A stretch of DNA of 37,177 bases from Candidatus Kaiserbacteria bacterium RIFCSPHIGHO2_01_FULL_58_22 (GTDB taxonomy: Bacteria > Patescibacteriota > Minisyncoccia > Phycocordibacterales > UBA2100). The notes below the pieces were generated by a model. The model was not told the DNA's origin. It searched no databases and saw only the letters and a program-made list of their open reading frames with translations. Below are positions 678 through 37,152 of the stretch, piece after piece (the first letter of the stretch is position 1; every line of letters starts with the position of its first letter). The stretch spans positions 1-37,177 of the forward strand of contig MFLB01000039.1 of assembly GCA_001781445.1 (NCBI GenBank). The letters run 5' to 3'. The translations under genes were made by a program, and so were the position numbers.

Positions 678-1490
678 CTACTCCTTCATCCTATGAACAA
701 TGAGCGTCGCCGGCGTTCTAAAGTCCAGTATACTCTCGATGTTCTCATGGATCGATACTTCGGTATCATCCTTTTCCGCAATGTTTCCAAGACCTTTCTC
801 CAGACCCGCGGAGAGTGCTTCCAACATAAGATTGCGACGCATAGGAGGCATATCTTCAATAACAAATCCGATCGGGAATGTGCGAAAGTAACTGTCCGCA
901 CCGAGGCTATCATACATATTGGAAAAGTACTGCGGTATCTCCTCCATATTTTTGCAGTAATGTGGAAGGCTCCATGTGGCCCATATTTCGTCGAACTTGT
1001 CATACCCGGCGGCATGAAGTTCAGTCAAAAAATCTTTCGAAGTGGGGTCAAGCTGCAAGGAACGATAGTAGCCTGCTGCTTGCCGATGATCAATGATCTC
1101 GTGTGAGAGATAGCGGTCTGCGTTCAGTATCAGCCGTGGCGTAAATCTTGGGTCGGAAGTAAGGTCGCCGAGCGATCTTCCACCGCCAACGAGAAGGATC
1201 CTTTTTCCATTCACTGCTCTTTCGAGACTTAAGAAATCCCGAGCATGTATCCCTAAGAGATACGGCGCAAGCGGAGGTCTCATCTCTCCATGGCTCCATA
1301 CTTTGGTAAACAGTCCTCTATTCACAACGGTGTCTTCGAAGCCGTGCTCTCCGATCGACGAATCATAGTAATCCTTCTTGGCGATCTTTATACACTGTGC
1401 GACCATGGCACGATTTTTCGCCTTTCGCTCCTCGAGTGCACTCCTGGGGCCATCTTTAAATCCTGCAATGCGCTCGTATATCATTTTCAT
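678..1490 (-). CDS. Hypothetical protein, possibly a class I SAM-dependent methyltransferase fold
   Basis: 270-aa ORF with no competing frame. Has a glycine-rich ILLVGGGRSLGD motif-I-like segment and a later FDEIWATWSLPHY segment. GC looks lower than flanking genes by eye. Confidence 0.65.
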   Translation of the reverse strand: MKMIYERIAGFKDGPRSALEERKAKNRAMVAQCIKIAKKDYYDSSIGEHGFEDTVVNRGLFTKVWSHGEMRPPLAPYLLGIHARDFLSLERAVNGKRILLVGGGRSLGDLTSDPRFTPRLILNADRYLSHEIIDHRQAAGYYRSLQLDPTSKDFLTELHAAGYDKFDEIWATWSLPHYCKNMEEIPQYFSNMYDSLGADSYFRTFPIGFVIEDMPPMRRNLMLEALSAGLEKGLGNIAEKDDTEVSIHENIESILDFRTPATLIVHRMKE

Positions 1491-2355: not shown

Positions 2356-5300
2356 CTAATCCGAGACGATGAGGTTCACGAGGCGGCCCGGCACGACGAT
2401 CGTACGAACGACCTGTTTTCCGTCCAAGCGAGCCGCAACCGCTCCCCGCGCCGCGGCCTCTTGAGCTTCCTTGTCCGCGTCTGCCGCGACGGATGCCTCT
2501 CCTCTCGTTTTCCCGTTTATCTGCACGGCGATGCGCACGGTTTCGTCTTTGAGCTTTGATACGTCGTACGAAGGCCATTTTTCAGTATGGATCGAACGCA
2601 TCTTTCTTGCTCCCCGTTTATCCTTCGTAGCTTTAGCGAAGGAGGACCAGAGTTCCTCGGTCATATGCGGCGCGAAGGGCGCCAATATCTTCAGGAAACG
2701 GACGAACTGGTCTTTGTTGATGCCTTCCTTTTCTGCGACATTCGTGAACGTCATCATCGCCGCAATGGCGGTATTGAACTTGAACGACTCTATGTCACTT
2801 CCCACTTTCAGTATCGTTTTGTGCAATTGCCGCTCGGTCCCCTCGGCTCCTCGCTCTTCGTTGCCTGCCCCGTAGCCATCCGAGCGAAGCGAGGATGTGG
2901 TACTGGGGTTCGCTCGCTGTCCCAGCCGCCACACGCGTTCAAGGAATCGCCGCGCGCCTATCATGCTCTCCGTGCTCCACGCGATCGAATCGGTGAAGGG
3001 CCCCATGAACATTTCGTACATGCGGAGCGTGTCGGCGCCGTAGGCCTTCACGATGTCGTCGGGATTTATCACGTTGCCGTAGCGCTTGCTCATCTTCTTT
3101 CCGTCGGGCGCCTGGATGAGTCCGACGGAGATCAGCCGCATGAACGGCTCGGGAGTGGAAACGACGCCGATGTCGTGCAAGAATTTGTGCCAAAAGCGCG
3201 CGTAGATAAGGTGGCGCGTCGCGTGCTCCGCGCCGCCCACATAGGTGTCTACCGGTGCCCAGTATTTCTCTTTTTTCTTATCGACGAGCGCTTTTTTGTT
3301 GTTCGGGTCCATGTAGCGCAGGTAGTACCACGAAGAACCCGCCCACTGTGGCATCGTGTTGGTCTCGCGCGTACCCGGACCCTTGCACTTCGGACAGCGG
3401 ACGTTGACCCATTTCGCAATACTCGCAAGCGGCGAGTGCCCCGTGCCGGTCGGTTGGTATGAATTCACCTCTGGCAATTTCACCGGCAAGTCCTTTTCCG
3501 GCACCGGCACGACACCACACTTGGCGCAATGAATGACAGGAATAGGTTCGCCCCAATAGCGCTGGCGGGAAAAAACCCAGTCGCGAAGCTTGTAGGTTAC
3601 CTTTGCGCGACCGAGTTTCCCGGTAATAGCTTTTCTTGCCTCTGCGCTCTCCATCCCGCTGAACTCTCCGGAATTCGCGAGTATTCCCTCCCCTTCGTAG
3701 CAGGCGCGGCCATTGATCCGTACCCACGCGATACGCATATCTTCGTGATTGATAAATTCGTCCATTTCTTTCTTCGTGAGCCATGTTATCTCGTGGTCCG
3801 CTTTTTCCTTTTCTGAAACTTGTTCGCAGGTGTCATCATCCAACGTAAAAAGGAACGGGGTGTAGTGAGCAAATGTATTCCATTTTCGAACAACACTGTA
3901 GTATTTGCCGTGGATCGTGCCGCCAAGCTTTCGCACAAGCGAGGTGTGTACATATCCAGTTTCTTCCCGTATCTCTCTTTGCGCTGTCGCGATCGGTTCT
4001 TCTCCCTCATCAATACCACCCGAAACACAGCCTCGCGTATCGGTGGGCTTATAGCGAACCGCAAGGTACTTGTCTTCGGACCAGTGCTTCACAAAGGCGA
4101 GAATAGCCGGTCGGTCGTGAAAGGGTCCGTCTGCGTGTACAGCATCGAGGCCGGTCGTCCGAACAGCGAGAGGCTCGATAACTTCGACGATAGGCAACTT
4201 GAACTTTTTGGCGAATTCGAAGTCGCGTTCGTCGTGCGCGGGGACTGCCATAATGGCGCCCGTGCCGTAGTGCGCGAGCACGTAGTCGGCGATGAAAATC
4301 GGTATTTTCTTTCCCGTCGCTGGATTAACCGCTTCCACCCCTTCGAGCCGCACGCCGGTCTTCTTTTTTTGTTCCGTTATTCGCTCGAGCTCTGTCTTTT
4401 TGTCCGATAGCGCGATATATCGCACTATTTCATCCTCATTCTTCAGCAAACCTTTTTGCTGGATGGCGAGCCGCACCCAAGGGTGTTCGGGAGCGAGCAC
4501 CATGTACGTCGCGCCAAAAAGCGTATCTGCACGCGTCGTAAAGACCGTGATACTAGGCAGAAGAGCGTTCAAGACCATCGGCTCCTCTTTCCCCATGAAG
4601 TGCTTTTCCTCCGCATTTCCTTCGACCAGACGGGCTCCGAGCTCTTTGGCCAGAAATTTGAGATACGGTATCCGCCGAGTGCCCTCTTGCAGATCCGAGA
4701 GAATAACAGAGAATCCCGCAAGCTTTCTGATTCGTGCATAGTCGACGTCCCAATTGAAATGCTTCTGATACGGGCGCTCTACCGCTCCCGGGAATTTTGC
4801 ATTAACGGCTGATGCGACAAGCATGAGACCAGCGATAGGTCTATTGATCTTTTCGAGAACTTTGAGAGCTATCGCTCCGCCGAGACTGTGGCCGACTATG
4901 ATTGTGCGCTCGTCAATGGTGCACGTATCTAACACCTTTTTCACCTGCTCAGTTTCCTTGGGATTCCAGGAATTTGGCAACTCTGGCACTTGCACCTTCA
5001 ATCCCCTTCTCTCCAGCTCCCCATTTAGCCAAGGAATAAAAGCGCCAATCGGGGATTCCTTGTATCCATGCAGGAGTAGATAATTTGGCTTTGGCGCCGT
5101 CGTATTTTCAAATTCAAGCGGAAAATCTATCTCCGCGCCTTCGCTCCGGCCTATCCAGTTGCGCTGTGATTCTTTGATGTGTTCCTGCCATTCGGGAAGA
5201 TGCGATAGGTCATTGAGGAGCCGTTCGGCGTAGTCAGTGATCCGGAGCATCCACTGTCGCATAGGCCTCTTCTCGACGATTGTGCCGCATCGCTCGCAGG

Positions 5301-5823
5301 CATTGCCGTCGAGGTCTTCGTTCGAAAGCCCAGTCTGACATTTCGGGCACCAATTGATGGGTTCGTTCGATTCGTATGCCAGCCCCTTCTCCAGAAGCTT
5401 CAAGAATATCCACTGCGTCCACTTGTAGTACGAGGGGTCGGTCGTGTTTATTTCGCGGCTCCAATCGTAATCGAGGCCGATCGTCGAGAGTTGCTCCTTG
5501 AATCGCGCGATGTTCTTGGCGACGGCGGCGCGCGGATGCACCTTGTTCTGGATCGCGAAATTCTCCGCAGGCAGGCCGAAGGCGTCCCACCCCATCGGAT
5601 GCAAAACGCTATGCCCCGTCATCCGCTTGTGGCGTGCATAGACGTCGGTCGCGATATAGCCCTTCGGGTGCCCTACGTGAAGCCCTTCCCCCGAAGGGTA
5701 TGGGAACATGTCCAAGACATATGACTTTGGTTTTCTAGGATTCTCTTTGGAACGATAGATCTCCTTCTTCTGCCATTCACGCTGCCACTTTTTCTCTATC
5801 TTTTTGTGGTCATACTTCCGCAT
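2356..5823 (-). CDS. leuS: Leucine--tRNA ligase, enlarged (1155 aa) by in-frame alpha/beta-hydrolase and Nudix modules
   Basis: Has HIGH (HVGH, aa 49-52), KMSKS (KMSKR, aa 910-914), editing-domain motifs TTRADTLFGATY and GAIMAVPAHDERDFEFAKKF, RDWVFSRQRYWGEPIP, and a C-terminal tRNA-binding domain. Extra segments at aa ~237-424 and ~551-712. Confidence 0.95.
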   Translation of the reverse strand: MRKYDHKKIEKKWQREWQKKEIYRSKENPRKPKSYVLDMFPYPSGEGLHVGHPKGYIATDVYARHKRMTGHSVLHPMGWDAFGLPAENFAIQNKVHPRAAVAKNIARFKEQLSTIGLDYDWSREINTTDPSYYKWTQWIFLKLLEKGLAYESNEPINWCPKCQTGLSNEDLDGNACERCGTIVEKRPMRQWMLRITDYAERLLNDLSHLPEWQEHIKESQRNWIGRSEGAEIDFPLEFENTTAPKPNYLLLHGYKESPIGAFIPWLNGELERRGLKVQVPELPNSWNPKETEQVKKVLDTCTIDERTIIVGHSLGGAIALKVLEKINRPIAGLMLVASAVNAKFPGAVERPYQKHFNWDVDYARIRKLAGFSVILSDLQEGTRRIPYLKFLAKELGARLVEGNAEEKHFMGKEEPMVLNALLPSITVFTTRADTLFGATYMVLAPEHPWVRLAIQQKGLLKNEDEIVRYIALSDKKTELERITEQKKKTGVRLEGVEAVNPATGKKIPIFIADYVLAHYGTGAIMAVPAHDERDFEFAKKFKLPIVEVIEPLAVRTTGLDAVHADGPFHDRPAILAFVKHWSEDKYLAVRYKPTDTRGCVSGGIDEGEEPIATAQREIREETGYVHTSLVRKLGGTIHGKYYSVVRKWNTFAHYTPFLFTLDDDTCEQVSEKEKADHEITWLTKKEMDEFINHEDMRIAWVRINGRACYEGEGILANSGEFSGMESAEARKAITGKLGRAKVTYKLRDWVFSRQRYWGEPIPVIHCAKCGVVPVPEKDLPVKLPEVNSYQPTGTGHSPLASIAKWVNVRCPKCKGPGTRETNTMPQWAGSSWYYLRYMDPNNKKALVDKKKEKYWAPVDTYVGGAEHATRHLIYARFWHKFLHDIGVVSTPEPFMRLISVGLIQAPDGKKMSKRYGNVINPDDIVKAYGADTLRMYEMFMGPFTDSIAWSTESMIGARRFLERVWRLGQRANPSTTSSLRSDGYGAGNEERGAEGTERQLHKTILKVGSDIESFKFNTAIAAMMTFTNVAEKEGINKDQFVRFLKILAPFAPHMTEELWSSFAKATKDKRGARKMRSIHTEKWPSYDVSKLKDETVRIAVQINGKTRGEASVAADADKEAQEAAARGAVAARLDGKQVVRTIVVPGRLVNLIVSD

Positions 5824-6046: not shown

Positions 6047-7090
6047 CTAGCGCAACGTGGATTTGCTGAACGGCGGATAGCGTTCCGGGTCTATCGTTCT
6101 GTCGAAGCAGACGTCTCCCGCCCCGTGTTGCCACGAATCGCCTTCGATTCCCTTTTCTCCGGGACCGGCCGCAATGGGCCGAACCATGTACGGATCTCCA
6201 ACTCCCTCTTTGTTGAACGTCGCGCAGAGCTTGAATGAGAGCCGCCCGGTGACCTCATACGCGTATGGCTCGCCGCTCTGCGGGTCCACGGGAAATACGT
6301 AGCCTCCGAGAGGGTCTTTGGCCTCTTCGAGCGTGGCGGGAAGCTTTTCTTTCTGTTGCCAATAATTCACGACCTGCCACTGAATGTTTTGCAGATCGCT
6401 CACCTTTTGGCTGTCGAGGCGAAGAAGGCGTACTTCTGCTGGCGATCCAAGGATAAAGAAGCCGGACGCGATCGCCGCGAGGACGACGAGTCCCGCGGCC
6501 ACTCCGACGGTCGTCGCGCGCGAGGGGTTTGCTTTCCAGTATCCGCGCAGATCGGCAAGGAAATGCAGGAACACAGCTCCCGCTACGAGAAGCAAGACAA
6601 TGACTTTAAGGATAAAGCGCGTCGTAAGCTCGCCGCCGAGAAAATAATTGATGAGCGTGATGAGATCGCCGACCAATGCCGCGCCTGCGACAAACACAGT
6701 CAGTACCAGCGCCCATCGTCGGACCCACAGCTCGCTCTTGATGGGTTCGCGCGCGATGTCGGAGCGAATGAAGCGGAGAAGAACGACCGTGACAGGGACA
6801 AGGACGATGAGCGACGCCATCGCGAAGCGTATCCCCCCGGAGAAAGGATCAACATAATATTCGAGCGGATCCGGGTACGTGCGGTCAATGTATTCGAACA
6901 AAAGCGCGATGAACGAGATGACGCTTCCGTAGAGCGCCACCATCGCGCCCGCCCAGAGAAAGAAATCCTTCGGGGTTACCTTGGGTTTGTCCATACGGAA
7001 ATAGTAAATGGTTATTAGAAAATAGCAAATGGCAGAGATCAAGAATGCAAGAACTCCCCTCCTTCGCGCAAGGCTTCGGAGGGCAAGCAT
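6047..7090 (-). CDS. Integral membrane protein (DUF5671-like N-terminal multi-pass region plus soluble C-terminal domain)
   Basis: About 6 hydrophobic helices in the first ~230 aa, then a hydrophilic domain (...QWQVVNYWQQKEKLPATLEE...). ATG at 7090 lies 3 nt after the ychF stop; the track ORF begins at GTG 7093. Confidence 0.7.
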   Translation of the reverse strand: MLALRSLARRRGVLAFLISAICYFLITIYYFRMDKPKVTPKDFFLWAGAMVALYGSVISFIALLFEYIDRTYPDPLEYYVDPFSGGIRFAMASLIVLVPVTVVLLRFIRSDIAREPIKSELWVRRWALVLTVFVAGAALVGDLITLINYFLGGELTTRFILKVIVLLLVAGAVFLHFLADLRGYWKANPSRATTVGVAAGLVVLAAIASGFFILGSPAEVRLLRLDSQKVSDLQNIQWQVVNYWQQKEKLPATLEEAKDPLGGYVFPVDPQSGEPYAYEVTGRLSFKLCATFNKEGVGDPYMVRPIAAGPGEKGIEGDSWQHGAGDVCFDRTIDPERYPPFSKSTLR

Positions 7091-7092
7091 CA

Positions 7093-8190
7093 CTACGAGT
7101 GCAGGAACTCCATGACGTCTCCGTCTTGCACTACGTATTCTTTGCCCTCGCTCCGGAGCCAGCCTTTCTCCCGTGCCTTTGCAAAAGAGCCTGCTTCAAG
7201 CAGTTTGTCCCAGCGAATGACTTCGGCGCGGATGAACTTGTCGCGGAAATCGGTGTGGATGGCGGCGCCCGCTTCCGGTGCCGTCGAGCCGCGCGCAATA
7301 GTCCACGCGCGGCTTTCTTTCTCACCCGTCGTGAAAAACGAGATGAGATCGAGAAGCTTGTAGCCCGCTTTGATGAGTTCGTCGAGCCCGTCGGCGACGC
7401 CGAGCTCGCGGCGGAAATCCGACTTTTCGTCACTGTGCACGTCGCCAAGCTCGTTCTCGACGCCGGCGTCCACGACGACATACTGCGCGCCGCTCGAATC
7501 GAGAAAATCCTTAAGCTCCCGCCATCGCGGCCCGCCCTCCGCATCAATGTTCAGCGCGCCGCTCTTCTTGTTCAAGACGTAGAGCATGGGCTTCATCGTG
7601 AGCATGTGCAGGGTCTTCGCATTCTCCCGTTCGCCGGCATCGAGCGACACGGAGCGCGCCGGTCTTCCCGCTTGGAGCGCCGGAACGATTTTCCGCAGAA
7701 GGTCGCGCTCGGCGACTAATTCCTTACCTCCCCCCTTTGCATCGCGTTCTACGCGATCGAGGCGCTTCGCGGCGTGCTCCAGATCGGCCTGCACGAGTTC
7801 GAGACCGACGACCTCGATGTCGTAGCGGGGATCCACGGCGCCCGCGACATGATGGATGTCGTCGTCCTCGAATATCCGCACGACCTCCGCTATGGCGTCA
7901 ACGTCCCGGATGTGCGAGAGGAACTGGTTGCCCAGCCCTTCCCCTTCCGAAGCGCCCTTGACCAAGCCCGCGATGTCCACAAACTCGACCGCCGCGGGGA
8001 TCTTCTTTTGCGAACGGGACATTTCGGCGAGCTTGTCGAGACGCACATCGGGCACGGCGACGACGCCGACCGAAGGGTCTATGGTGGCGAACGGATAATT
8101 CGCGATCAAAACGCCCTTCCGCGTCAGCGCGTTAAAAAGCGTCGACTTGCCGACATTCGGGAGCCCGACGATGCCGATACTCAATGACAT
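7093..8190 (-). CDS. ychF: Ribosome-binding ATPase YchF
   Basis: 365 aa. Has an N-terminal P-loop [18 protein letters not shown], the [10 protein letters not shown]2 region and a C-terminal TGS-like end ...[18 protein letters not shown]. Confidence 0.93.
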
Positions 8191-11735: not shown

Positions 11736-13115
11736 CTACTTCACGATGGCCGACGCCGAGCGCTCGAGCGGCGTTCCGGATGCGCTCCGGCATTGGAGGC
11801 TGAAATCCCACGCGCCGGGAGTCGTCGTCGCGCTCGTGAGTATCGTCCGGGAACCCTCGTTGCCGCGGGCGATCAGCGCGTTGGTTCCTCCGGCGCGCGC
11901 ATACACGTGGCAGGGTTCCGCGACGCTCATGCCGATCGAGGACCACGAAACGACGAGCGGATTCCCCCGCGCGACCTCCCTCGGCTGGACGACGAGCGAA
12001 GCGACGGATGCCGGCATGGGAGGAGGCATTCCCTGTGGCGAAGGCAGAAAACCGGAAACTGGTCGCGAAGAAGGCGGCTGTACGGAGGGCGGCGCGGCTC
12101 CCTGCCGCGAAAAAAGTCCGCTGAAAAGAGAAAAGATGCTCCCGAACGCGCTCACGTTCGCGAACGGGCTGGCACCGCGGTTGGAAGAACTCATGGAGTA
12201 GCCTGCATAGGCGGAGCCGGCCGGCACAGCTCCCGGCCCAAACGTGTGCGGCGCGATGCCCTCTCTCGCCGGCGGCGCGGCGGCCGCGGGGATTTTTGCG
12301 GGGTCGACATCCGCAAGCTTCTTGACGTCTGTCGGCGTCAGGTTCAGCTCCGGATACTCGCGCGCGAGCCTTTCGGCTCCTTCGGCGTCACCGGATCTTC
12401 CCGCTCGGATGATTTCCTGGACGAGAGCCGTTTTTGCGCGATCGCTTGCAATAGCGGCGGCTTTCGCCGGATCCATGCCGCCTCCCGCCAAGACCTCCCT
12501 CGTTTTTGCTTCTGGGTCGGTAAACGCAACGATAATTCCCCGAGTCACCGGAGGACCGATCGGCGGCGCGGCTGGCGAGACATCGGGCTTGAAAGCTCGC
12601 ACCGCGAGACGTATCGTATTTCTTTTCAATGGATCGGCGCTCTTATTCTCGGCGCTCGCGCTGATGTCGCCGGGAAGGGAAGGATCGCATTTTGAGCGGA
12701 CGATATCCGGGCCGCCCTGAAACGTATCCTCGTATGCAAGAGTCGGCGGAGTTTGCCCCGTACCACAGCCGTATTTTTGCAGATCGGCCACCGAACAACA
12801 GGCGCGCGTTGTTTTAATGGCGATCCGGACATAGCAACTGCTTCCGAGCTTGCAATTCGGATAGTTCGTTCGTATCGAAACCCTTTGGTCGGAACACTTT
12901 GAGAGTTGGCTGATTGCGGTATTGGGCACGCCGCTTTTTGCAGAACTGATCCAATAGTTTTTTGAATTGTCCGCACCGGCAACGGAGCCGTATGTCCGTA
13001 CCTCCGTGTAGCCTGCGGGCACGCAGTCTTTCAACGAGCCCGGCGCGGCTTTCGCTTGGGCATGCGCGGCAACAAAAACCGCCATCACGGACAATATGGC
13101 GAGACCAAACCGCAT
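11736..13115 (-). CDS. Secreted Cys-rich protein of unknown function
   Basis: Best start is MRFGLAILSVMAVFVAAHAQA (signal peptide) at 13115. Has a Cys-rich N-terminal domain, a Pro-rich linker and a beta-rich C-terminal domain. The track ORF extension to 13280 would overlap atpC. Confidence 0.7.
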   Translation of the reverse strand: MRFGLAILSVMAVFVAAHAQAKAAPGSLKDCVPAGYTEVRTYGSVAGADNSKNYWISSAKSGVPNTAISQLSKCSDQRVSIRTNYPNCKLGSSCYVRIAIKTTRACCSVADLQKYGCGTGQTPPTLAYEDTFQGGPDIVRSKCDPSLPGDISASAENKSADPLKRNTIRLAVRAFKPDVSPAAPPIGPPVTRGIIVAFTDPEAKTREVLAGGGMDPAKAAAIASDRAKTALVQEIIRAGRSGDAEGAERLAREYPELNLTPTDVKKLADVDPAKIPAAAAPPAREGIAPHTFGPGAVPAGSAYAGYSMSSSNRGASPFANVSAFGSIFSLFSGLFSRQGAAPPSVQPPSSRPVSGFLPSPQGMPPPMPASVASLVVQPREVARGNPLVVSWSSIGMSVAEPCHVYARAGGTNALIARGNEGSRTILTSATTTPGAWDFSLQCRSASGTPLERSASAIVK

Positions 13116-13188
13116 GCGCTCATTGTATCGCGCCGCGGAAGGAATGCGCCACCGGCGCCATTGAATAATGTTGAAAACCTTGCGCGTG

Positions 13189-13434
13189 CTAGAGAAGCAC
13201 GACGGCGCGGTTGCCGGAGACTTCGAGCACGCCGCTTTCGATAGGAACATCCTTCGTGCTCTCCGCGGACTCGCGGACACGGATCACCCCCTTTTTAAGG
13301 GTTGTCACGAACGGCTCGTGATGCGCGAGCACCGTCAGTTCGCCGTCGGAGCCGGGAAAGGTGGCGGAAACCGACGGGCCGTCGAAGCGCGTCTCGCCCA
13401 CCGAGGCGATAACGAGATGAAAAGTCGAAGACAT
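13189..13434 (-). CDS. atpC: F1 ATP synthase subunit epsilon, short form (beta-sandwich only)
   Basis: 81 aa. FHLVIASVGETRFDGPSVSATFPGSDGELTVLAHHEPFVTTLKKGVIRV, positioned directly after atpD. Confidence 0.85.
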   Translation of the reverse strand: MSSTFHLVIASVGETRFDGPSVSATFPGSDGELTVLAHHEPFVTTLKKGVIRVRESAESTKDVPIESGVLEVSGNRAVVLL

Positions 13435-15280
<1,846 letters not shown>

Positions 15281-15341
15281 GATGACCCGATTCTACCCGC
15301 ATTTGCTTCCCATTTCAAATGTGTGTATAGCCCGCCAGTAA

Positions 15342-15375
15342 ATACAGCTCTCGTACATATGTACGAGAACTGTAT
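15342..15375. promoter_or_regulatory. 34-bp palindrome ATACAGCTCTCGTACATATGTACGAGAACTGTAT (copy 1)
   Basis: Dyad symmetry centred on CATATG. Overlaps by 1 nt the TGA of the PaaX-like gene and lies upstream of the 116-aa ORF. 30/34 identical to the copy at 15954..15987. Confidence 0.75.
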
Positions 15376-15944
15376 CATGTCGTAATCTTGAAACGTCTTT
15401 GGAGATCCGCGGATCCGTCGACATGCGTTGCGGTTATGAACGACACATGGGGGAGAACTCCGTGGAAATTGGCGATCTCCCGCACCTCATCAGCGCATGG
15501 ATGCGGATGGATCCAAAGCGAACGCTGGTAAAAAACGAGCCCAAGGTTCTGAAGATGCCGTATGAATGGAATTCTCGCCTTAGAAAGTTCCTGAGGGATG
15601 TCGAAGGCGACAATATGCCATCTTCCATCCCATCGTTTCGGAACGGAGATTTTGAGTTCCCACAGCTTCCCTTCCTCCACAAGCCGCCTGCCTATGTCCG
15701 AAAGAGCATATCGCTCTCCGACACCGCGCACATAACCTCTGCGTCGCGCTTCATAGATCCTTCGAGTGGCCCAACGGCGATTTTTCTGCGTATCTCCCAT
15801 GGCGAGTTCTTTTAATACTCTCGCTAGCGCCCACGGGGGCGGAACGGCTCCGATCCCAACGACAAGAACCCCCACACCTATCATCTTGAGAATCCGTATC
15901 GTCTTCTCGCTCGGCCTCTGAAACTTGATCCCAGATATTCTCAT
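15375..15944 (-). CDS. PaaX-like regulator (N-terminal TM segment, winged-helix-like region, WDGRWHIVAFDIP ferredoxin-fold domain)
   Basis: 189 aa. Has a hydrophobic MIGVGVLVVGIGAVPPPWAL, a basic ...RRWATRRIYEARRRGYV... and WDGRWHIVAFDIPQELSKARIPFIRHLQNLGLVFYQRSLWIHPHP, resembling the PaaX C-terminal/Cas2-like pattern (recalled). Confidence 0.55.
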   Translation of the reverse strand: MRISGIKFQRPSEKTIRILKMIGVGVLVVGIGAVPPPWALARVLKELAMGDTQKNRRWATRRIYEARRRGYVRGVGERYALSDIGRRLVEEGKLWELKISVPKRWDGRWHIVAFDIPQELSKARIPFIRHLQNLGLVFYQRSLWIHPHPCADEVREIANFHGVLPHVSFITATHVDGSADLQRRFKITT

Positions 15945-15950
15945 ATACTC

Positions 15951-15956
15951 ATAATA
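15951..15956 (-). promoter_or_regulatory. Candidate -10 box TATTAT 6 nt upstream of the PaaX-like ATG
   Basis: The minus strand reads CTGTATTAT-gagtat-ATG. The box overlaps the end of the 34-bp palindrome. Confidence 0.4.
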
Positions 15957-15987
15957 CAGTTCTTGTACATATGTACAAGGACTGTAT
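15954..15987. promoter_or_regulatory. 34-bp palindrome ATACAGTTCTTGTACATATGTACAAGGACTGTAT (copy 2)
   Basis: Sits between the rdgB stop (1-nt overlap) and the PaaX-like start, 9 nt from the ATG. The compensatory C..G to T..A change relative to copy 1 keeps the dyad. Confidence 0.75.
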
Positions 15988-16589
15988 CACTGAAATCCTG
16001 AAAATTCCGAAAGCAGTATGGTGCGGGCTTTGGCAAGCGCGCGGCCGCGGTGGCTGACGCTATTCTTCTCTTCGACGCTTATTTCCGCGCCCGTCTTTTG
16101 CAGTTCGTCGGAAAAGAAAACGGGATCGTAGCCGAATCCCCCGCTCCCGCGCGGCTCGCGCGTGATGCGGCCGCCGTACGAGCCCTCGCAGGTGCGGATG
16201 CCGTCCGTCGCCGGGTCGTACATGGCGACCGCGGCGACAAAGCGCGCGGTGCGTTTTTTATCCGGCACATCTTCCATCTCCCGGAGCAATTTCCGGTATC
16301 GCGCCTCGTCGTTGCCTTCCGCGTAGCGGGCGGAGAGCACGCCGGGCTTGCCGCCGAGAGCTTCCACCTGAAGCCCCGAATCCTCGGCGAGCGTGAGCTT
16401 CCCCGTCCTCGTGCCGTACGTCCTCGCCTTGAGGACAGCGTTCTCTTCAAATGTCGTTCCGGTTTCCTCGACATCCGCGCCCGCCGCTACGTCCGCAAGC
16501 GTGAGGATGGCAAAGGGGATCTCTCCGAGCGCGTCGAGCATCTCGCGGAGCTTTCCCCTGTTGCGCGTCGCGATCAAAAGCTCGCGCAT
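15987..16589 (-). CDS. rdgB: dITP/XTP pyrophosphatase (RdgB/HAM1 family)
   Basis: 200 aa. LLIATRNRGKLREM..., TFEENAVLKA..., EDSGLQVEALGGKPGV.SARY, GSGGFGYDPVF and SHRGRAL are all canonical RdgB motifs. Confidence 0.92.
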   Translation of the reverse strand: MRELLIATRNRGKLREMLDALGEIPFAILTLADVAAGADVEETGTTFEENAVLKARTYGTRTGKLTLAEDSGLQVEALGGKPGVLSARYAEGNDEARYRKLLREMEDVPDKKRTARFVAAVAMYDPATDGIRTCEGSYGGRITREPRGSGGFGYDPVFFSDELQKTGAEISVEEKNSVSHRGRALAKARTILLSEFSGFQ

Positions 16590-16593
16590 ATGA

Positions 16594-16675
16594 ATAGTTC
16601 GTAGTTAGTAGATAGTAGTAAGTAGAGAGTCTATTTAATTTAACTACTAACTACAGACTACTTTCTACTAACTAG
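16594..16675. repeat. Intercistronic palindromic unit, TAGTAGT/CTACTAA subfamily (atpG|rdgB spacer)
   Basis: Arms at 16594..16625 (ATAGTTCGTAGTTAGTAGATAGTAGTAAGTAG) and 16644..16675 (CTACTAACTACAGACTACTTTCTACTAACTAG), 82 bp in total. Starts 1 nt after the atpG stop and ends 4 nt before the rdgB ATG. Confidence 0.85.
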
Positions 16676-16676
16676 T

Positions 16677-17594
16677 TCATCGCATCGCCTCGATGCCGCT
16701 CGTTATCTCGGATACCTCGCGCGTGATGGCGGCCTGGCGCACCTTGTTGAAGGTGCGCGTGAGGTCGCCCGCCATTTCCTTGGCTTTGTCGGTCGCGTTC
16801 TTCATCGCGACCATGCGGGCCGAGTGTTCGGAGGCTTTCGCTTCGAGGAGCGCGTGGAAGACCGCGATGTTCAGTAGTTTCGGAAGGAGCGCGCTCAAAA
16901 CCTCTTCGGGGCTCGGCTCGATGGTGTAGACCGCCGGCTGTTCATGTTTTTCGCCGGTTTCCGGTGCATATTTCCCTTTTGCCGGCCTGATGTGCTGTAC
17001 CATCTCCCGCATCATCTCCGCGGTTATCGGCACGATCTGGCGCACGCCCGCCTCCTGCTCGAAGGTCGAGAGAAAATTCTGATACGCGATGACGCACTCG
17101 CCGACCTCCCCGGCTTCTTTCCATTCGAGCAGTTTGTCGGTGATCATCCGCGTCTCCCCCTCGGAAACCCCGTCGCTTACGTTTTCGTGCTTGACGCGCA
17201 CCTCGTAGCCGCGCGAGGCGAAATAGTCCCCGCCGCGGCGGCCCACGGCTATCATGACGACGTCGTTCTTGGCAAGGCGTCGCCTTGCTATCTCGGCTTC
17301 GACACTGCGCACGACGGCGCTGTTGAGGGAGCCTGCCAGTCCCTTGTCGCTCGTAATGACGATTATGCAGGTCTTCCCTATCTGCTCCTTCGCGAGCGGG
17401 TGCCGCTCGGCGTCCGGCGTCCCTGCGAGACGCTCCAGCACGGAGAGGGCCGCGGCCGCGTACGCACGCCCATTCAAGGCGCGCTCCTGCGATTTCCGCA
17501 TCTTGACCGCCGAGACGGCTTCCATCGCGTGCGTTACCGTCCCCGTCTTTTTGTAGGAGACTATTTTCGTCTTGATGCTTTTGAGGGAAGCCAT
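16677..17594 (-). CDS. atpG: F1 ATP synthase subunit gamma
   Basis: 305 aa. N-terminal LKSIKTKIVSYKKTGTVTHAMEAVSAVKMRK and C-terminal ...FNKVRQAAITREVSEITSG helices are typical of gamma. Confidence 0.92.
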   Translation of the reverse strand: MASLKSIKTKIVSYKKTGTVTHAMEAVSAVKMRKSQERALNGRAYAAAALSVLERLAGTPDAERHPLAKEQIGKTCIIVITSDKGLAGSLNSAVVRSVEAEIARRRLAKNDVVMIAVGRRGGDYFASRGYEVRVKHENVSDGVSEGETRMITDKLLEWKEAGEVGECVIAYQNFLSTFEQEAGVRQIVPITAEMMREMVQHIRPAKGKYAPETGEKHEQPAVYTIEPSPEEVLSALLPKLLNIAVFHALLEAKASEHSARMVAMKNATDKAKEMAGDLTRTFNKVRQAAITREVSEITSGIEAMR

Positions 17595-17596
17595 GC

Positions 17597-17679
17597 GATA
17601 GTAGTTAGTGGTCAGTAGTCAGTAGTTAGTAGTAAAATGCATCAAGACTACTTTCTACTTTCTACTAACTATTTACTAT
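17597..17679. repeat. Intercistronic palindromic unit, TAGTAGT/CTACTAA subfamily (atpA|atpG spacer)
   Basis: Arms at 17597..17634 and 17646..17679, 83 bp in total. The right arm includes the atpA codons IVNS-TAG. The left arm ends 2 nt before the atpG ATG. Confidence 0.85.
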
Positions 17680-33486: not shown

Positions 33487-34173
33487 ATGGCGTATAGGCG
33501 TGTCCCTTTTCAACTTGATGAGTGGTTCCATTGTTATAACCGAGGCATTGATAAGCGCACGGTATTCGAGTCAGAAGATGACTCAGAGCGTTTTCTTAAG
33601 CTGCTCTATCTTGCAAATTCGGAAGCGAATCTTCATCTGGCCGATATTTCAGATAAAACTGACGCTATCATGACGCGCCAACGGAAAGGAGTTCTCGTTT
33701 CTATCGGCGCGTACTGTCTGATGCCAAACCACTTTCATTTGCTGCTGAAAGAGGTCGTCGAGGGCGGGATCATAAGATTCATGCAAAAGCTCGGGACCGC
33801 CTATGCTATGTATTTCAATACGAAGAATGAGCGATCGGGAAACTTGTTCTTGAAGCCGTTCCGATCGCGACATGTTGGCGATGATCGCTACTTTCAGCGC
33901 GTCGTAGATTACATCCACTGCAACCCGGCAGAACGATTCGAGCCGGGATGGAAAAGAGGCACTGTTCGCAACATGAATCGTCTTGAGCGGCAGCTCCGTG
34001 ACTACCGCTATTCGAGCTTTCCCGACTATGCCCGCGAACGCCGTGCCATCGCCGCAATTTTATCGGACGACGGCTTCAAAGTGTATCGAGATCGCGGACA
34101 GCGAAGAATGCTCGACGACGCCCGTGCCTACTACGCGGACATCGACTTGGATGACCGTGGCCTGCACTCCTGA
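33487..34173 (+). mobile_element. IS200/IS605-superfamily Y1 (HUH) transposase, REP-associated tyrosine transposase (RAYT)-like
   Basis: 228 aa. Has the HUH motif in YCLMPNHFHLLL, the catalytic-Tyr region VVDYIHCNP, and N-terminal ...WFHCYNRG. Confidence 0.8.
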
Positions 34174-34177
34174 CCCG

Positions 34178-34199
34178 CAAGGCGACGCCTCGTGGGTTT
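34178..34199. repeat. Hairpin (C)AAGGCG-a-CGCCT(CG) flanking the Y1 transposase gene (3' side)
   Basis: Direct-orientation counterpart of 33446..33468: GGCGACGCCTCGTGGGTTT. Confidence 0.65.
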
Positions 34200-34318
34200 T
34201 CACGGAGTGGTACACTTGGCGCAAATGAGTAAACTCTCGTGGACGCTCCTCTTGGTCACATCGATGGCTGGCATCGCAAGTATCTATTCGTGACGATCTG
34301 CGCGTGCGCGCACCGATC

Positions 34319-34597
34319 TCAAGCGGCTACAACAAACGGCGTGACGAGCCTATTAACGGCGACGCGCAATTTTTCGAGCGTACCGTCGGCGCGCGCGTAT
34401 TCTACGGCGCGCAGAAGAAGGAGTCCCTCTTCATATGCTTCGGGGCGGTTTGCCGTGCGCAATGCTTCAAGCGTTTTTTGCGCGCGGCCGATCGAAGATT
34501 CATATCGCGCGCGGTCTCCCGCTTCGGCCGCGACGATGCACCGGAGCACGTCGGCTCCGAGATTGGCGAAGTAGAACCGGGCGTTTTTGCCGCTCAT
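34319..34597 (-). CDS. Hypothetical small helical protein (92 aa)
   Basis: Its ATG overlaps the upstream gene's stop (ATGA at 34594..34597). No family recognised. Confidence 0.55.
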   Translation of the reverse strand: MSGKNARFYFANLGADVLRCIVAAEAGDRARYESSIGRAQKTLEALRTANRPEAYEEGLLLLRAVEYARADGTLEKLRVAVNRLVTPFVVAA

Positions 34598-34950
34598 ACG
34601 AACAAATCCGGCAGTACCCGCTCCAGAATGCCGCGGATGTTGTCTCTAACGCCCGTATCCGTTATCTCCATTTCCCGATTTCCTTGCGCCGGGCGGATGT
34701 TGATGAGCGAGACATATTCGACGGCGTCGTCTCCGCGCTTATCGGGATAGAGGTTGAATCCCCAGACGCTCCTCTGCTCTGAACCGTCGGCGATGAGGAT
34801 GTTGTTCGCATCCACATGCCACTCCCCTCCGAGTGCGATAATTTCGCGCTCGATATCGGCGACTCCTTTCACCATGTCGCGGTACATTTCTTTTGCGAGT
34901 TCCCTGACTTCTTCGACGGATATCGGTTCTTTGACGATTTTTATGTTCAT
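34594..34950 (-). CDS. DUF5674-like protein
   Basis: 118 aa. MNIKIVKEPISVEEVRELAKEMYRDMVKGVADIEREIIALGGEWHVDANNILIADGSEQRSVWGFNLYP resembles the DUF5674 pattern I recall from CPR genomes. Confidence 0.6.
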   Translation of the reverse strand: MNIKIVKEPISVEEVRELAKEMYRDMVKGVADIEREIIALGGEWHVDANNILIADGSEQRSVWGFNLYPDKRGDDAVEYVSLINIRPAQGNREMEITDTGVRDNIRGILERVLPDLFV

Positions 34951-34985
34951 GGGAGTATTATAGCCCCTCGACTTCGTTCAGTGCA

Positions 34986-36090
34986 CTACTGATATTCACA
35001 CATCTCCCTCCACATAGTTCGCAGGTTTGATACCATGGGGACATGAGTACCCCCCACCCCAACCGGGCTCTGTCTGTCCAGGAGCTCGAAGACCGCCGGA
35101 AGGCGGCAGGCCGATTATTCGACAAAGGAAAGACGGCGTACTTCGTCGCGAAGCGCTTCGCCGTCTCAACCGCGACCGCGCGCGAATGGAAAGAACGCTG
35201 GGCGAGGGGGACGCTCGCGGCACAACCGCAGGGTCCTCACTCGAAACTCACGAAGGCGCAAGAAAAGGAGATCGTTTCCGCGATCCTCGCGGGACCGGAG
35301 AAGGCCGGATACCGAACCCAGCTCTGGACGCTCTCGCGCATCACCGAGCTCATCAGAAAGACGCAGGCCGTGTCGTACAAGCCGCGCTCCGCGTGGCATC
35401 TCCTCCGACGTCTTGGGTTTTCCTGTCAGCGTCCCGAGCGAAGAGTGAGGTAGCGCGACGAGGAGGCGATCACACGCTGGACAAAGACGGAGTGGCCGAA
35501 ACTCCGAAAAAGGGGGCGCTCCTTCGCGTGACCTTCTGTTTCCTTGACGAATCGGGGTACTCGGAACGTCCGACAGTCCGAAGCACGTGGGGGAGGAAAG
35601 GAGAGACACCCATCATTCGGTCGACCGGATCGTGGAAGAGCATCTCGGCGACCGGCATCATCGCGACCGATGTTGCCCTGAGGCGCGTGCGCGAACTATG
35701 CACGTTCAAAAAAGGTTCGGTGCGCAAAGAAGACACCGTGAATACGCTCAAGCATCTTCTGCGACACGTGAAGGGTCGGATCGCGCTCTTTTGGGACGGT
35801 CTCGCGCAGCACGGAGCGAGAAGTGTCCGCGAGTACCTCGCCGGACACCGCGACCGCTTCGTCATGGTCGAGCGCTTCCCCGCCTACGCGCCAGAGCTCA
35901 ATCCCCAGGAGTACCTCTGGTCGTCGTCGAAAACGAAAGACATGGCGAACTACTGCCCGGAGAAGCCGGACGATCTCGCGCAAAAAGCGCGTATGAGCCT
36001 CAGGCGCATCCAACGCCGTCCCGACATTCTGCGGGGTGCGCTCAAGAAGTCAGGATTATTTGGAGGAGGGAGTTAAGTGAAGCTCAGTAG
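34986..36090 (+). mobile_element. IS630-family insertion sequence, decayed
   Basis: Imperfect 26-bp terminal inverted repeats, CTACTGATATTCACACATCTCCCTCC (34986..35011) versus the reverse complement of 36065..36090, 20/26 matching. Length of about 1.1 kb is typical of IS630. No clean TA duplication is seen. Confidence 0.65.
35043..36076 (+). pseudogene. IS630-family DDE transposase interrupted by an in-frame TAG and a frameshift
   Basis: The N-terminal HTH part (35043..35453) ends at TAG 35451. The same frame continues RDEEAITRWTKTEWPKLRKRG to TGA 35529. The catalytic part (FLDESG, LFWDGLAQH, PELNPQEYLW) is in the -1 frame from about 35507, across an A5G5 run (35507..35516). Confidence 0.8.
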
Positions 36091-36145
36091 ATTCGCCTTG
36101 GGTGGCTTGCCGAGAGTGAGCCCAAGTTTATCGCGGGCGAATCGA

Positions 36146-36164
36146 GTGGACCCGAGGGGTTTCG
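36146..36164. repeat. 19-bp direct copy of the tRNA-Ala 3' end
   Basis: GTGGACCCGAGGGGTTTCG is identical to 36314..36332. Confidence 0.9.
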
Positions 36165-36314
36165 GTCACAGCTCTCGCTTTGCTCGGCCGCGACCCCGCC
36201 TCGCCGACAAGCATTCGCTTCGCTCATCTTGTATACCGGCTCCGGCCTTCGAAACCCCTCGTGCCCTACAAAAATATAGTCGCCCATTGCTCCGCAATGT
36301 TCTCCTGATTTTTG

Positions 36315-36387
36315 TGGACCCGAGGGGTTTCGAACCCCTTGCCTCGTCTATGCCATAGACGCGCTCTACCAATTGAGCTACGGGCCC
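36315..36387 (-). tRNA. tRNA-Ala (anticodon GGC)
   Basis: GGGCCCGTAGCTCAATTGGTAGAGCGCGTCTATGGCATAGACGAGGCAAGGGGTTCGAAACCCCTCGGGTCCA has the G3:U70 identity pair, anticodon loop ATGGCAT and T arm AGGGG-TTCGAAA-CCCCT. CCA is not encoded. Confidence 0.92.
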
Positions 36388-36439
36388 GGAATCTTGCCGA
36401 GACAAAAAGATAGTACATTCTTTGCCTCTCTCTGGCTAT

Positions 36440-36467
36440 ATCTCTACGATGCATCTCTACGATGCAT
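36440..36467. repeat. 13-bp tandem duplication ATCTCTACGATGC x2
   Basis: Exact adjacent copies at 36440..36452 and 36453..36465, followed by AT. Confidence 0.85.
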
Positions 36468-36512
36468 ATCCGAGCATAGTGGTATTATGACGCATGACCA
36501 TTTATATCGGCG

Positions 36513-36536
36513 CAAAAGGGGCGATGTCCCCTTTTG
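36513..36536. other. Hairpin CAAAAGGGG-cgatgt-CCCCTTTTG
   Basis: 9-bp perfect stem located 13 nt upstream of the preferred GNAT ATG. Could act as a bidirectional terminator. Confidence 0.5.
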
Positions 36537-36549
36537 TCGAATAGGCGTC

Positions 36550-37068
36550 ATGGATATCGAAGTCGCACAGGCAGGATGGAGGGATTTCCCGGTGCTCTGG
36601 AGCTTGCAAAAAAAGATCCTCCGCGAGGCGGAGCACCTGGTCGCGACCGGCGAGGAGCGGAAGGAGCCCTTTGCATACGCGCTCGCAAAAGCCTTCCTGC
36701 ACCGCAAGCGCGTCCACACGTTCCTCGCGCTGGAGGGAGGAGAGATGGTCGGCTATATCACGCTCGTCTCGGGAAAATTCAAGAAAATAAGGGATACCGT
36801 CTACATCGTCGTCGGGGTCCGCGCATCGCACCGCGGGCGCGGCATCGGGACGAAGCTCCTCGCACGCGCGGAAGAGTTCGCGCGCGAGCGCGGGATGCAC
36901 CGCATGGAACTCGAAGTCTCGGATAAAAACGAGTATGCGATACGGCTGTATGAGCGGCTTGGCTACGCGGCGGAAGGCCGCCGCCGCGAGGCGACCAAGA
37001 CCTCGGGCGGGTACAACGACATCATCTGGATGGGAAAACTCCTTTCGAATGGCGGAGGACGAGTGTAA
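36550..37068 (+). CDS. GNAT-family N-acetyltransferase
   Basis: MDIEVAQAGWRDFP... with the acetyl-CoA motif VVGVRASHRGRGIGTKLL and ...YERLGY. The track ORF start (36373) overlaps tRNA-Ala. An alternative ATG lies at 36487. Confidence 0.85.
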   Translation: MDIEVAQAGWRDFPVLWSLQKKILREAEHLVATGEERKEPFAYALAKAFLHRKRVHTFLALEGGEMVGYITLVSGKFKKIRDTVYIVVGVRASHRGRGIGTKLLARAEEFARERGMHRMELEVSDKNEYAIRLYERLGYAAEGRRREATKTSGGYNDIIWMGKLLSNGGGRV

Positions 37069-37080
37069 ACTACCAACTCA

Positions 37081-37152
37081 CCCCGCGTCGTTCAACGGAT
37101 AGGACGCGAGCTTCCGGAGCTCGTAATGTGGGTTCGATTCCTGCCGCGGGGA
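37081..37152 (+). tRNA. tRNA-Arg (anticodon CCG)
   Basis: CCCCGCG-TC-GTTC-AACGGATA-GGAC-G-CGAGC-TTCCGGA-GCTCG-TAAT-GTGGG-TTCGATT-CCTGC-CGCGGGG-A. The cloverleaf has two G:U pairs in the T stem and an unusual C1:G72. Confidence 0.75.

Follow-up and report, generated by a model that had tools for sequence, protein, structure and literature searches.

Why a leucyl-tRNA synthetase (LeuRS) should carry a complete serine hydrolase at the entry of its own editing domain is the question raised by contig MFLB01000039.1 (assembly GCA_001781445.1) of Candidatus Kaiserbacteria bacterium RIFCSPHIGHO2_01_FULL_58_22, a bacterium of the candidate phyla radiation (CPR). The whole stretch of 37,177 nt was analysed and is referred to as the window. 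A first-pass annotation, made from the sequence alone, had described in its LeuRS gene an inserted alpha/beta serine-hydrolase module and had suggested that this module could provide an additional proofreading or deacylase activity. The module was found to be genuine and widespread among related bacteria, and it is probably an active enzyme for which LeuRS serves mainly as a carrier. The proposed role in proofreading is not supported by the comparative evidence, and a second nested domain had been overlooked.

A hydrolase nested in the leucyl-tRNA synthetase

The host open reading frame (ORF) was found to be a single unbroken frame. Its whole product scored 976 bits against the bacterial LeuRS model TIGR00396 (leuS_bact, cutoff 548) in the NCBIfam profile search. 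The main features of the gene are the following.

2356..5823, minus strand: host gene, bacterial-type LeuRS, ORF of 1155 aa (TIGR00396; HVGH and KMSKR motifs)
4552..5115, minus strand: nested YdeN/RBBP9-type alpha/beta serine hydrolase, aa 237-424, folded core about aa 246-422
4522..4539, minus strand: threonine-rich CP1 editing motif TTRADT, aa 429-434, directly after the insert
4222..4239, minus strand: CP1 editing motif AHDERD, aa 529-534

The HVGH (aa 49-52) and KMSKR (aa 910-914) motifs are present together with the two editing motifs, and NWIGRSEGAEI (aa 222-232) forms the N-terminal flank of the hydrolase insert. The coordinates given in the first-pass annotation, both for the insert and for its GHSLGG motif (nt 4876-4893), proved to be exact.

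In order to identify the insert, aa 237-424 were searched against profile hidden Markov models, as had been proposed in that annotation. The Pfam family PF06821 (Ser_hydrolase) was matched with 31.6 bits (E=1.9e-7) by the insert alone and with 27.3 bits by the full protein, both above the gathering cutoff of 22. When the single sequence was searched against the PDB, YdeN (1UXO) was retrieved at E=5.7e-9. A family profile of 27 sequences matched YdeN with E=8.5e-32 and RBBP9 with E=1e-25, covering the whole domain. The AlphaFold2 (AF2) model of the insert, with a predicted local distance difference test (pLDDT) score of 96.5, could be superposed onto 1UXO with template modelling (TM) scores of 0.86/0.84 and a root-mean-square deviation of 2.5 Å, and onto RBBP9 (7OEX) with a TM score of 0.83, while the next-best folds remained below 0.75. 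The insert is a compact, lid-less alpha/beta-hydrolase fold of about 180 aa, in good agreement with the YdeN/RBBP9 type first suggested for it. No homology was detected to the known aminoacyl-tRNA editing folds (CP1, AlaX/tRNA_SAD, YbaK and DTD); in the Pfam, NCBIfam, PDB sequence and Foldseek searches the insert matched alpha/beta-hydrolases only.

The full-length AF2 model reached a pLDDT of 88.2 and a predicted TM score of 0.76, with pLDDT values of 86-96 across the hydrolase insert. For the synthetase part of this model, the top Foldseek matches were bacterial LeuRS (TMt 0.81-0.84). The LeuRS structures among the matches listed comprise 621-876 residues, and none of them contains such inserts.

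The editing-domain model PF13603 was placed on the protein in three pieces, the best of them relating aa 424-553 to model positions 22-144, and the insert appears to split this model near position 21/22. Module-less orthologues (54-57% identity) have just 11-25 residues between the same flanking motifs, for example DFALEGREEKVT, and there are 11 residues between those flanks in E. coli LeuRS. The insert is therefore a clean domain insertion in the hairpin that opens CP1, and the earlier description of an in-frame insertion with intact LeuRS motifs on either side, as opposed to a gene fusion boundary, was borne out.

The most trivial explanation of such a protein would be an artefact, that is, a chimeric assembly or a frameshift fusing neighbouring genes. 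Nothing was found to support it apart from the G+C content at third codon positions (GC3), which is lower in the hydrolase insert (0.54) and in the NUDIX insert described below (0.53) than in the LeuRS core segments (0.65-0.75). However, the frame is unbroken and continues as LeuRS on either side of the insert. More than 100 independent sequences of different provenance show the same junctions, with dozens of such orthologues from independent assemblies in ENA, JGI, NCBI and Logan, as well as an identical protein from another assembly (P0010), which was recovered in the full-length search. A chimera was ruled out on these grounds, and the artefact explanation retains practically no probability. 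The low GC3 could be caused by relaxed codon selection or by foreign origin. It was attributed to relaxed constraint, since the inserts are common to orthologues across CPR classes, and a recent horizontal origin was judged unlikely for the same reason. The hydrolase copies found in different hosts are only about 40-46% identical and thus give no sign of recent mobility. An intein or mobile-element reading of the window insert was also considered and rejected, as neither a Hint/intein splicing motif nor a homing-endonuclease domain was found among the Pfam matches of the window protein.

Catalytic residues

The catalytic residues were evaluated in 207 copies of the domain, each covering at least 150 of its 188 residues; 144 of these are embedded in larger proteins and 63 belong to proteins of less than 260 aa. 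The residues of interest were located as follows.

5065..5070, minus strand: HG oxyanion-hole motif, H252-G253 (H in 199/207 copies, G in 198/207; in embedded copies H in 138/144, G in 140/144)
4876..4893, minus strand: nucleophile elbow GHSLGG, aa 311-316, with Ser313 at nt 4885-4887
4684..4695, minus strand: candidates for the triad acid, E380 (nt 4684-4686) and, alternatively, D377 (nt 4693-4695)
4600..4602, minus strand: catalytic His408 (206/207 copies, 143/144 embedded), aligned with the GHF His of RBBP9 and YdeN

Ser313 was found in 206 of the 207 copies and in all 144 embedded ones, and it aligns with Ser75 in the GHSSG motif of RBBP9. An acidic residue (D or E) occupies position 380 in 200/207 copies (137/144 embedded), and the window has Glu. 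In the profile alignment this position corresponds to the second D of the 'TDD' motif of RBBP9, which we take to be Asp138, the catalytic acid of that enzyme. D377 is kept in 67 of the 68 members of the E380 subclass to which the window belongs, and the triad may be completed by either Glu380 or Asp377. The HG, GxSxG, acid and His elements recognized in the first-pass annotation are accordingly not only present but conserved throughout the family.

Among 53 orthologues of the same architecture, the mean pairwise identity was 41% for the insert and 63-66% for the synthetase core. The conservation of the catalytic residues in an insert that evolves faster than the core indicates, at the level of sequence, selection on catalysis in the nested hydrolase, which is probably enzymatically active.

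Nested copies, whatever their host, share the signature Q293, D377 and E414, which is absent from terminal fusions and from most standalone proteins; terminal fusions retain the standalone signature W293/S377. In the subclass of the window, E380 is invariant in addition, and R384 and Y387, which likewise lie beside the active site, are nearly so.

A second nested domain

The first-pass annotation had implied a single insert in this LeuRS. This view had to be corrected, as another domain was found about 130 residues downstream of the hydrolase.

3709..4164, minus strand: second nested domain, NUDIX hydrolase, aa 554-705, with the Nudix box at aa 602-624 (nt 3952-4020)

The NUDIX insert scored 37.1 bits against PF00293 (cutoff 21.1). 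Its Nudix box, GGIDEGEEPIATAQREIREETGY, fits the consensus GX5EX7REUXEEXGU, and the key residues are kept in 51-53 of 53 orthologues. The site lies near the C-terminal end of CP1 and is occupied by 11 aa in NUDIX-less orthologues. In the PDB the insert matched just one sequence, that of lupin Ap4A hydrolase (1F3Y, E=4.7e-4), with most of the similarity in the box, and a word-indexed homologue search returned just two weak standalone matches.

About five insertion hot spots were recognized in CPR LeuRS, at aa ~205-215, 236-424, 553-705, 765-770 and 813-816 in the numbering of the window protein. Judged from the sequences gathered, CPR LeuRS is a hub for domain insertions.

Some relatives were seen to carry other combinations. 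The LeuRS P0123, of 1722 aa, contains three NUDIX copies, the hydrolase and a HAD phosphatase. Five others (P0049, P0095, P0098, P0183 and P0201) contain DUF559 beside the hydrolase, an in-frame IS200-like Y1 transposase domain, or GNAT together with the hydrolase.

A further observation concerns the core of the window protein. Only about 10 residues (GLIQAPDGK) separate a core strand from KMSKR (3082-3130, minus strand, LeuRS aa ~899-914). The leucine-specific domain of E. coli LeuRS comprises about 50 aa and precedes the KMSKS region. By comparison with this general picture of the E. coli enzyme, the window LeuRS seems to be without a leucine-specific domain, although two other domains have been gained.

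Distribution across LeuRS and other hosts

The full-length search retrieved about 120 LeuRS from the Patescibacteria group, Paceibacterota, Parcubacteria, Kaiserbacteria, Taylorbacteria, Woesebacteria and Pacebacteria, most of them of 1120-1150 aa with both PF06821 and NUDIX. In the set of 139 full-length LeuRS relatives that was gathered, the hydrolase occupies the site seen in the window (site 1) in 105. Every combination of the hydrolase and NUDIX inserts was found in this set, with the following counts.

Hydrolase and NUDIX: 59 of 139 LeuRS
Hydrolase only: 25 of 139 LeuRS
NUDIX only: 20 of 139 LeuRS
With an extra NUDIX nested in the N-terminal core: 30 of 139 LeuRS

On a neighbour-joining tree of the core of these 139 proteins, which is a crude tree, at least 21 state changes were counted for the hydrolase and at least 26 for NUDIX. 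A second position for the hydrolase was located in the zinc knuckle of other LeuRS, where the module directly follows the first CxxC (GEPIPxxHCxxC-[hydrolase]-xxPVPExDLP, window aa ~769). No LeuRS of this set has both a site-1 and a site-2 copy. The survey of orthologues that had been suggested in the first-pass annotation thus shows an insert that is widespread but patchy in the LeuRS of Patescibacteria, and not unique to the window.

When the insert was searched exhaustively against 1.84 billion representatives at 50% identity, 1180 matches were obtained at E<=1e-3 and 161 at E<=1e-10. The best 150 of the 1180 matches comprise 53 hosted by LeuRS, 11 in other proteins of at least 260 aa and 86 in proteins of less than 260 aa. 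Identity to the insert is as high as 40-43% among standalone relatives of about 180 aa. The same module (36-46% identity) was found nested in alanyl-tRNA synthetase (AlaRS), valyl-tRNA synthetase (ValRS), TsaD, Der/EngA, UvrA and a protein with the SecA wing/scaffold region. It also occurs as a terminal fusion to adenylate kinase and to NUDIX, and duplicated in tandem. The relatives with other hosts or fusions are P0159, P0170, P0176, P0192, P0194, P0208, P0229 and P0255. The gene neighbourhood of the closest standalone hydrolase (P0136) was uninformative, consisting of short contigs with unannotated neighbours.

A scan of GTDB genomes with the insert, for which over-specific peptide patterns were used, gave only three loci: a Candidatus Nomurabacteria metagenome-assembled genome (MAG) with 74% identity in the insert region, which is the nearest named genome, a Parcubacteria MAG with 47%, and a standalone homologue in Chryseobacterium.

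It had been stated at first that no LeuRS of this architecture was known. As far as sequence records are concerned this did not hold, given the number of relatives that carry the insert and the automatic labels that already exist, such as 'leucyl-tRNA synthetase/predicted esterase YcpF' at JGI and 'alpha/beta fold hydrolase' or 'class I tRNA ligase family protein' at NCBI. With respect to publications the statement stands: no account of a LeuRS with a hydrolase or NUDIX insert was found in the full-text literature searched, including a review on Patescibacteria, although many subscription papers lie outside this coverage and the absence is not proof. The architecture appears to be common in the CPR lineage and yet undescribed in that literature.

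Function of the nested hydrolase

The segment is probably an autonomous, catalytically competent YdeN/RBBP9-family serine hydrolase, which occupies a permissive surface beta-hairpin at the entry of CP1 and has LeuRS as its carrier for the most part, and not a third site of tRNA proofreading. This reading draws directly on the fold, the insertion site, the conservation of the catalytic residues, the lineage-wide distribution, the multiple hosts and sites and the intact CP1. In the mechanism envisaged, Ser313 of the GHSLGG elbow would attack the ester or amide carbonyl of a soluble substrate, with His408 acting as the base and Glu380 (or Asp377) as the acid, and the turn formed by H252-G253 would provide the oxyanion hole. 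An acyl-enzyme would form and would then be hydrolysed. We infer both this acyl-enzyme chemistry and its independence from tRNA. As a synthetase, LeuRS would function normally, its CP1 proofreading site being intact, and the hydrolase and NUDIX would be examples of small 'housekeeping' hydrolases that have been inserted time and again into large essential proteins of CPR bacteria.

Several observations weigh against a mere carrier role of LeuRS. The insert sits on the mobile CP1 domain beside the editing pocket, a position compatible with access to the tRNA 3' end. Three of the hosts (LeuRS, ValRS and AlaRS) are editing synthetases, and TsaD also binds tRNA. RBBP9, the only characterised member of the family, cleaves aminoacyl groups with a free alpha-amine (PMC8866121), which belong to the same chemical class as an aminoacyl ester. 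The nested signature (Q293, D377 and E414), together with E380, R384 and Y387 in the subclass of the window, could reflect a specialised function linked to the host. Finally, the module has been retained for long at one LeuRS site, which speaks for some advantage in this setting.

A third hydrolytic proofreading site, supplementing CP1 by deacylating mischarged aminoacyl-tRNA or by hydrolysing aminoacyl-adenylate, in cis or in trans, is in essence the role suggested as a possibility in the first-pass annotation. The location at the base of CP1 and the occurrence of the module in ValRS, AlaRS and TsaD are consistent with it, and so are the residues peculiar to nested copies near the active site, including the conserved Arg384 of the window subclass. 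RBBP9 is an aminopeptidase that requires a free alpha-amine and forms an acyl-enzyme with such aminoacyl groups; its S1 pocket is aromatic, the amine is anchored by Glu108, and Tyr99, Leu103, Phe140 and Leu141 form a cage (PMC8866121). However, neither the anchor Glu108 nor the cage residues Tyr99, Phe140 and Leu141 are preserved in the nested family, where the aligned columns are variable or different: A, F or P stands at 339, Glu is missing from 349/350, and the window has T and R at 382/383, the alignment of the loops being uncertain. No substrate can thus be deduced from these residues. Furthermore, the CP1 residues T429, T430, R431, T434, H530, D531, R533 and D534 are invariant across 70 LeuRS whether the hydrolase is present or not, so that there is nothing to compensate. 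Many close LeuRS orthologues are devoid of the module, which is also found at a different LeuRS site and in UvrA, Der, the SecA-region protein and adenylate kinase. Against the idea also speaks the nesting of NUDIX, HAD and GNAT domains in these same LeuRS. The nested domains are not electropositive (median net charge -2, a weak proxy for tRNA binding), and no similarity to the AlaX, YbaK or DTD editing folds was observed. Extra proofreading is therefore not supported by the comparative evidence and is considered unlikely. A broader variant of the idea, judged somewhat less likely still, is that a dedicated nested-type YdeN subfamily (Q293/D377/E414) has been placed repeatedly in editing synthetases (LeuRS at two sites, ValRS and AlaRS) and in other translation factors, where it would act on aminoacyl-tRNA or aminoacyl-AMP esters. 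If this were true, minimal cells would possess a third site for quality control or aminoacyl turnover, and the activity would rest on a serine-hydrolase fold never before linked to tRNA.

Alternatively, the insert may be a nutrient-scavenging aminopeptidase or esterase tethered to a consumer of its product. It would supply an auxotrophic CPR cell with free amino acids (e.g. Leu, Val or Ala cleaved from N-termini) or with building blocks of another kind, while NUDIX and HAD would salvage nucleotides. The aminopeptidase activity of RBBP9 (PMC8866121) suits this proposal, as do the synthetase hosts, which include LeuRS, ValRS and AlaRS, and the co-occurrence of the module with NUDIX and adenylate kinase, to which it is also directly fused. 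On the other hand, UvrA, Der, TsaD and the SecA-region host are not consumers of amino acids, and the pocket residues of RBBP9 are not conserved; the proposal is rather improbable. The insert could also be a catalytically dead spacer or interaction domain, its fold being kept for the architecture of LeuRS or for the binding of a partner. Such a role would fit an insert that evolves faster than the LeuRS core and that, in the window, has Glu in place of the canonical Asp. However, Ser, His, the acid and HG are kept in at least 95% of the 144 embedded copies, and Ser-His-Glu triads are functional in other alpha/beta hydrolases, which makes loss of catalysis very unlikely. Slightly below it in probability, and likewise highly doubtful, stands an in-cis detoxification of aminoacyl-nucleotide antibiotics directed against LeuRS (agrocin-84 or the aminoacyl-sulfamoyl-adenosine type), in which the hydrolase would cut the aminoacyl-nucleotide link and NUDIX the nucleotide part. 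Two hydrolases on one drug-target enzyme would be in keeping with it. By analogy only, dedicated hydrolases are known to confer resistance to peptide-nucleotide synthetase inhibitors (10.1101/2020.03.04.977132). The insert nevertheless resembles neither MccF nor HIT enzymes, hosts other than synthetases are not accounted for, and the distribution is lineage-wide and not sporadic.

With a nested, active hydrolase carried by LeuRS as the preferred reading, the finding concerns one of the best-studied proofreading enzymes, which is also a drug target and in whose matched solved structures CP1 contains no nested catalytic domain. In an entire bacterial radiation, LeuRS is made with an intact serine hydrolase inside it, often with NUDIX, HAD or GNAT as well. 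The nested hydrolases in LeuRS, ValRS, AlaRS, TsaD, Der and UvrA point to an unrecognised organisation of the proteome, in which enzymes travel as passengers in essential proteins of ultra-small cells. A new hydrolytic activity linked to translation is the less probable meaning. In practice, these proteins are annotated inconsistently ('alpha/beta fold hydrolase', 'class I tRNA ligase family protein' or 'hypothetical protein'), by which reconstructions of CPR metabolism can be led astray.

Other genes of the window

The remaining genes look typical of a CPR genome and include a DUF5671 protein, YchF, an F-ATPase operon, a Mur ligase, a penicillin-binding protein, RsmH and GMP synthase. A free-standing alpha/beta hydrolase of 295 aa adjoins the F-type ATP synthase operon (13500-21401). 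Mobile-element-like genes are clustered beside tRNA genes at 33487-37152. The individual features are listed below.

678-1490, minus strand: ORF of 270 aa, no Pfam match
6047-7093: DUF5671 membrane protein, 348 aa, neighbour of LeuRS (Pfam)
11736-13280, minus strand: ORF of 514 aa, no Pfam match
21482-22369, minus strand: free-standing alpha/beta hydrolase of 295 aa, DUF1749/Hydrolase_4, with a weak PF06821 match over the nucleophile elbow only
33487-34173: IS200-like Y1 transposase ORF
35027-36076: DDE_3 transposase
36315-36387, minus strand: tRNA gene
36373-37068: GNAT acetyltransferase
37081-37152, plus strand: tRNA gene

Comparison with known systems

Free-standing trans-editing deacylases (AlaX, YbaK/ProX and DTD) would have in common with the nested hydrolase only the proposed hydrolysis of aminoacyl esters; their folds are unrelated, and no sequence or profile similarity was detected. 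A closer parallel in architecture is the NCBIfam family NF040702 ('isoleucine--tRNA ligase, N-acetyltransferase domain-containing'), an NCBI-curated exception family in which a class Ia synthetase is likewise combined with a small enzyme domain. In that case, however, the added domain is GNAT and the host is isoleucyl-tRNA synthetase. Among the 25 of 35 matches listed, none was an NCBIfam model that combines LeuRS with a hydrolase or a NUDIX domain, and the window protein reaches only the generic TIGR00396.

With the bacterial LeuRS of known structure (E. coli 4AQ7/4ARC and T. thermophilus 2BTE), the window protein shares the core, ZN, CP1, anticodon-binding and C-terminal domains, as well as the HIGH, KMSKS, T-rich and AHD(E/Q)RD editing motifs. 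It differs from the matched LeuRS structures by the hydrolase of about 180 aa and the NUDIX domain of about 150 aa, which are accommodated in two CP1 loops.

The closest relatives of the insert itself are YdeN of B. subtilis (1UXO) and human RBBP9 (2QS9/7OEX), both of PF06821. Like the window domain they are lid-less proteins of about 180 aa, with the HG motif, the GHSxG elbow and the His in the same positions and an acid at the position of Asp138. This acid is Glu in the window, in contrast to the Asp of RBBP9, and the cage and anchor residues of RBBP9 (Tyr99, Glu108, Phe140 and Leu141) are not conserved in the window domain. Unlike YdeN and RBBP9, nested copies bear their own signature (Q293, D377 and E414), with R384 and Y387 in the window subclass. 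While YdeN and RBBP9 are free-standing proteins, the window domain is nested inside another enzyme.

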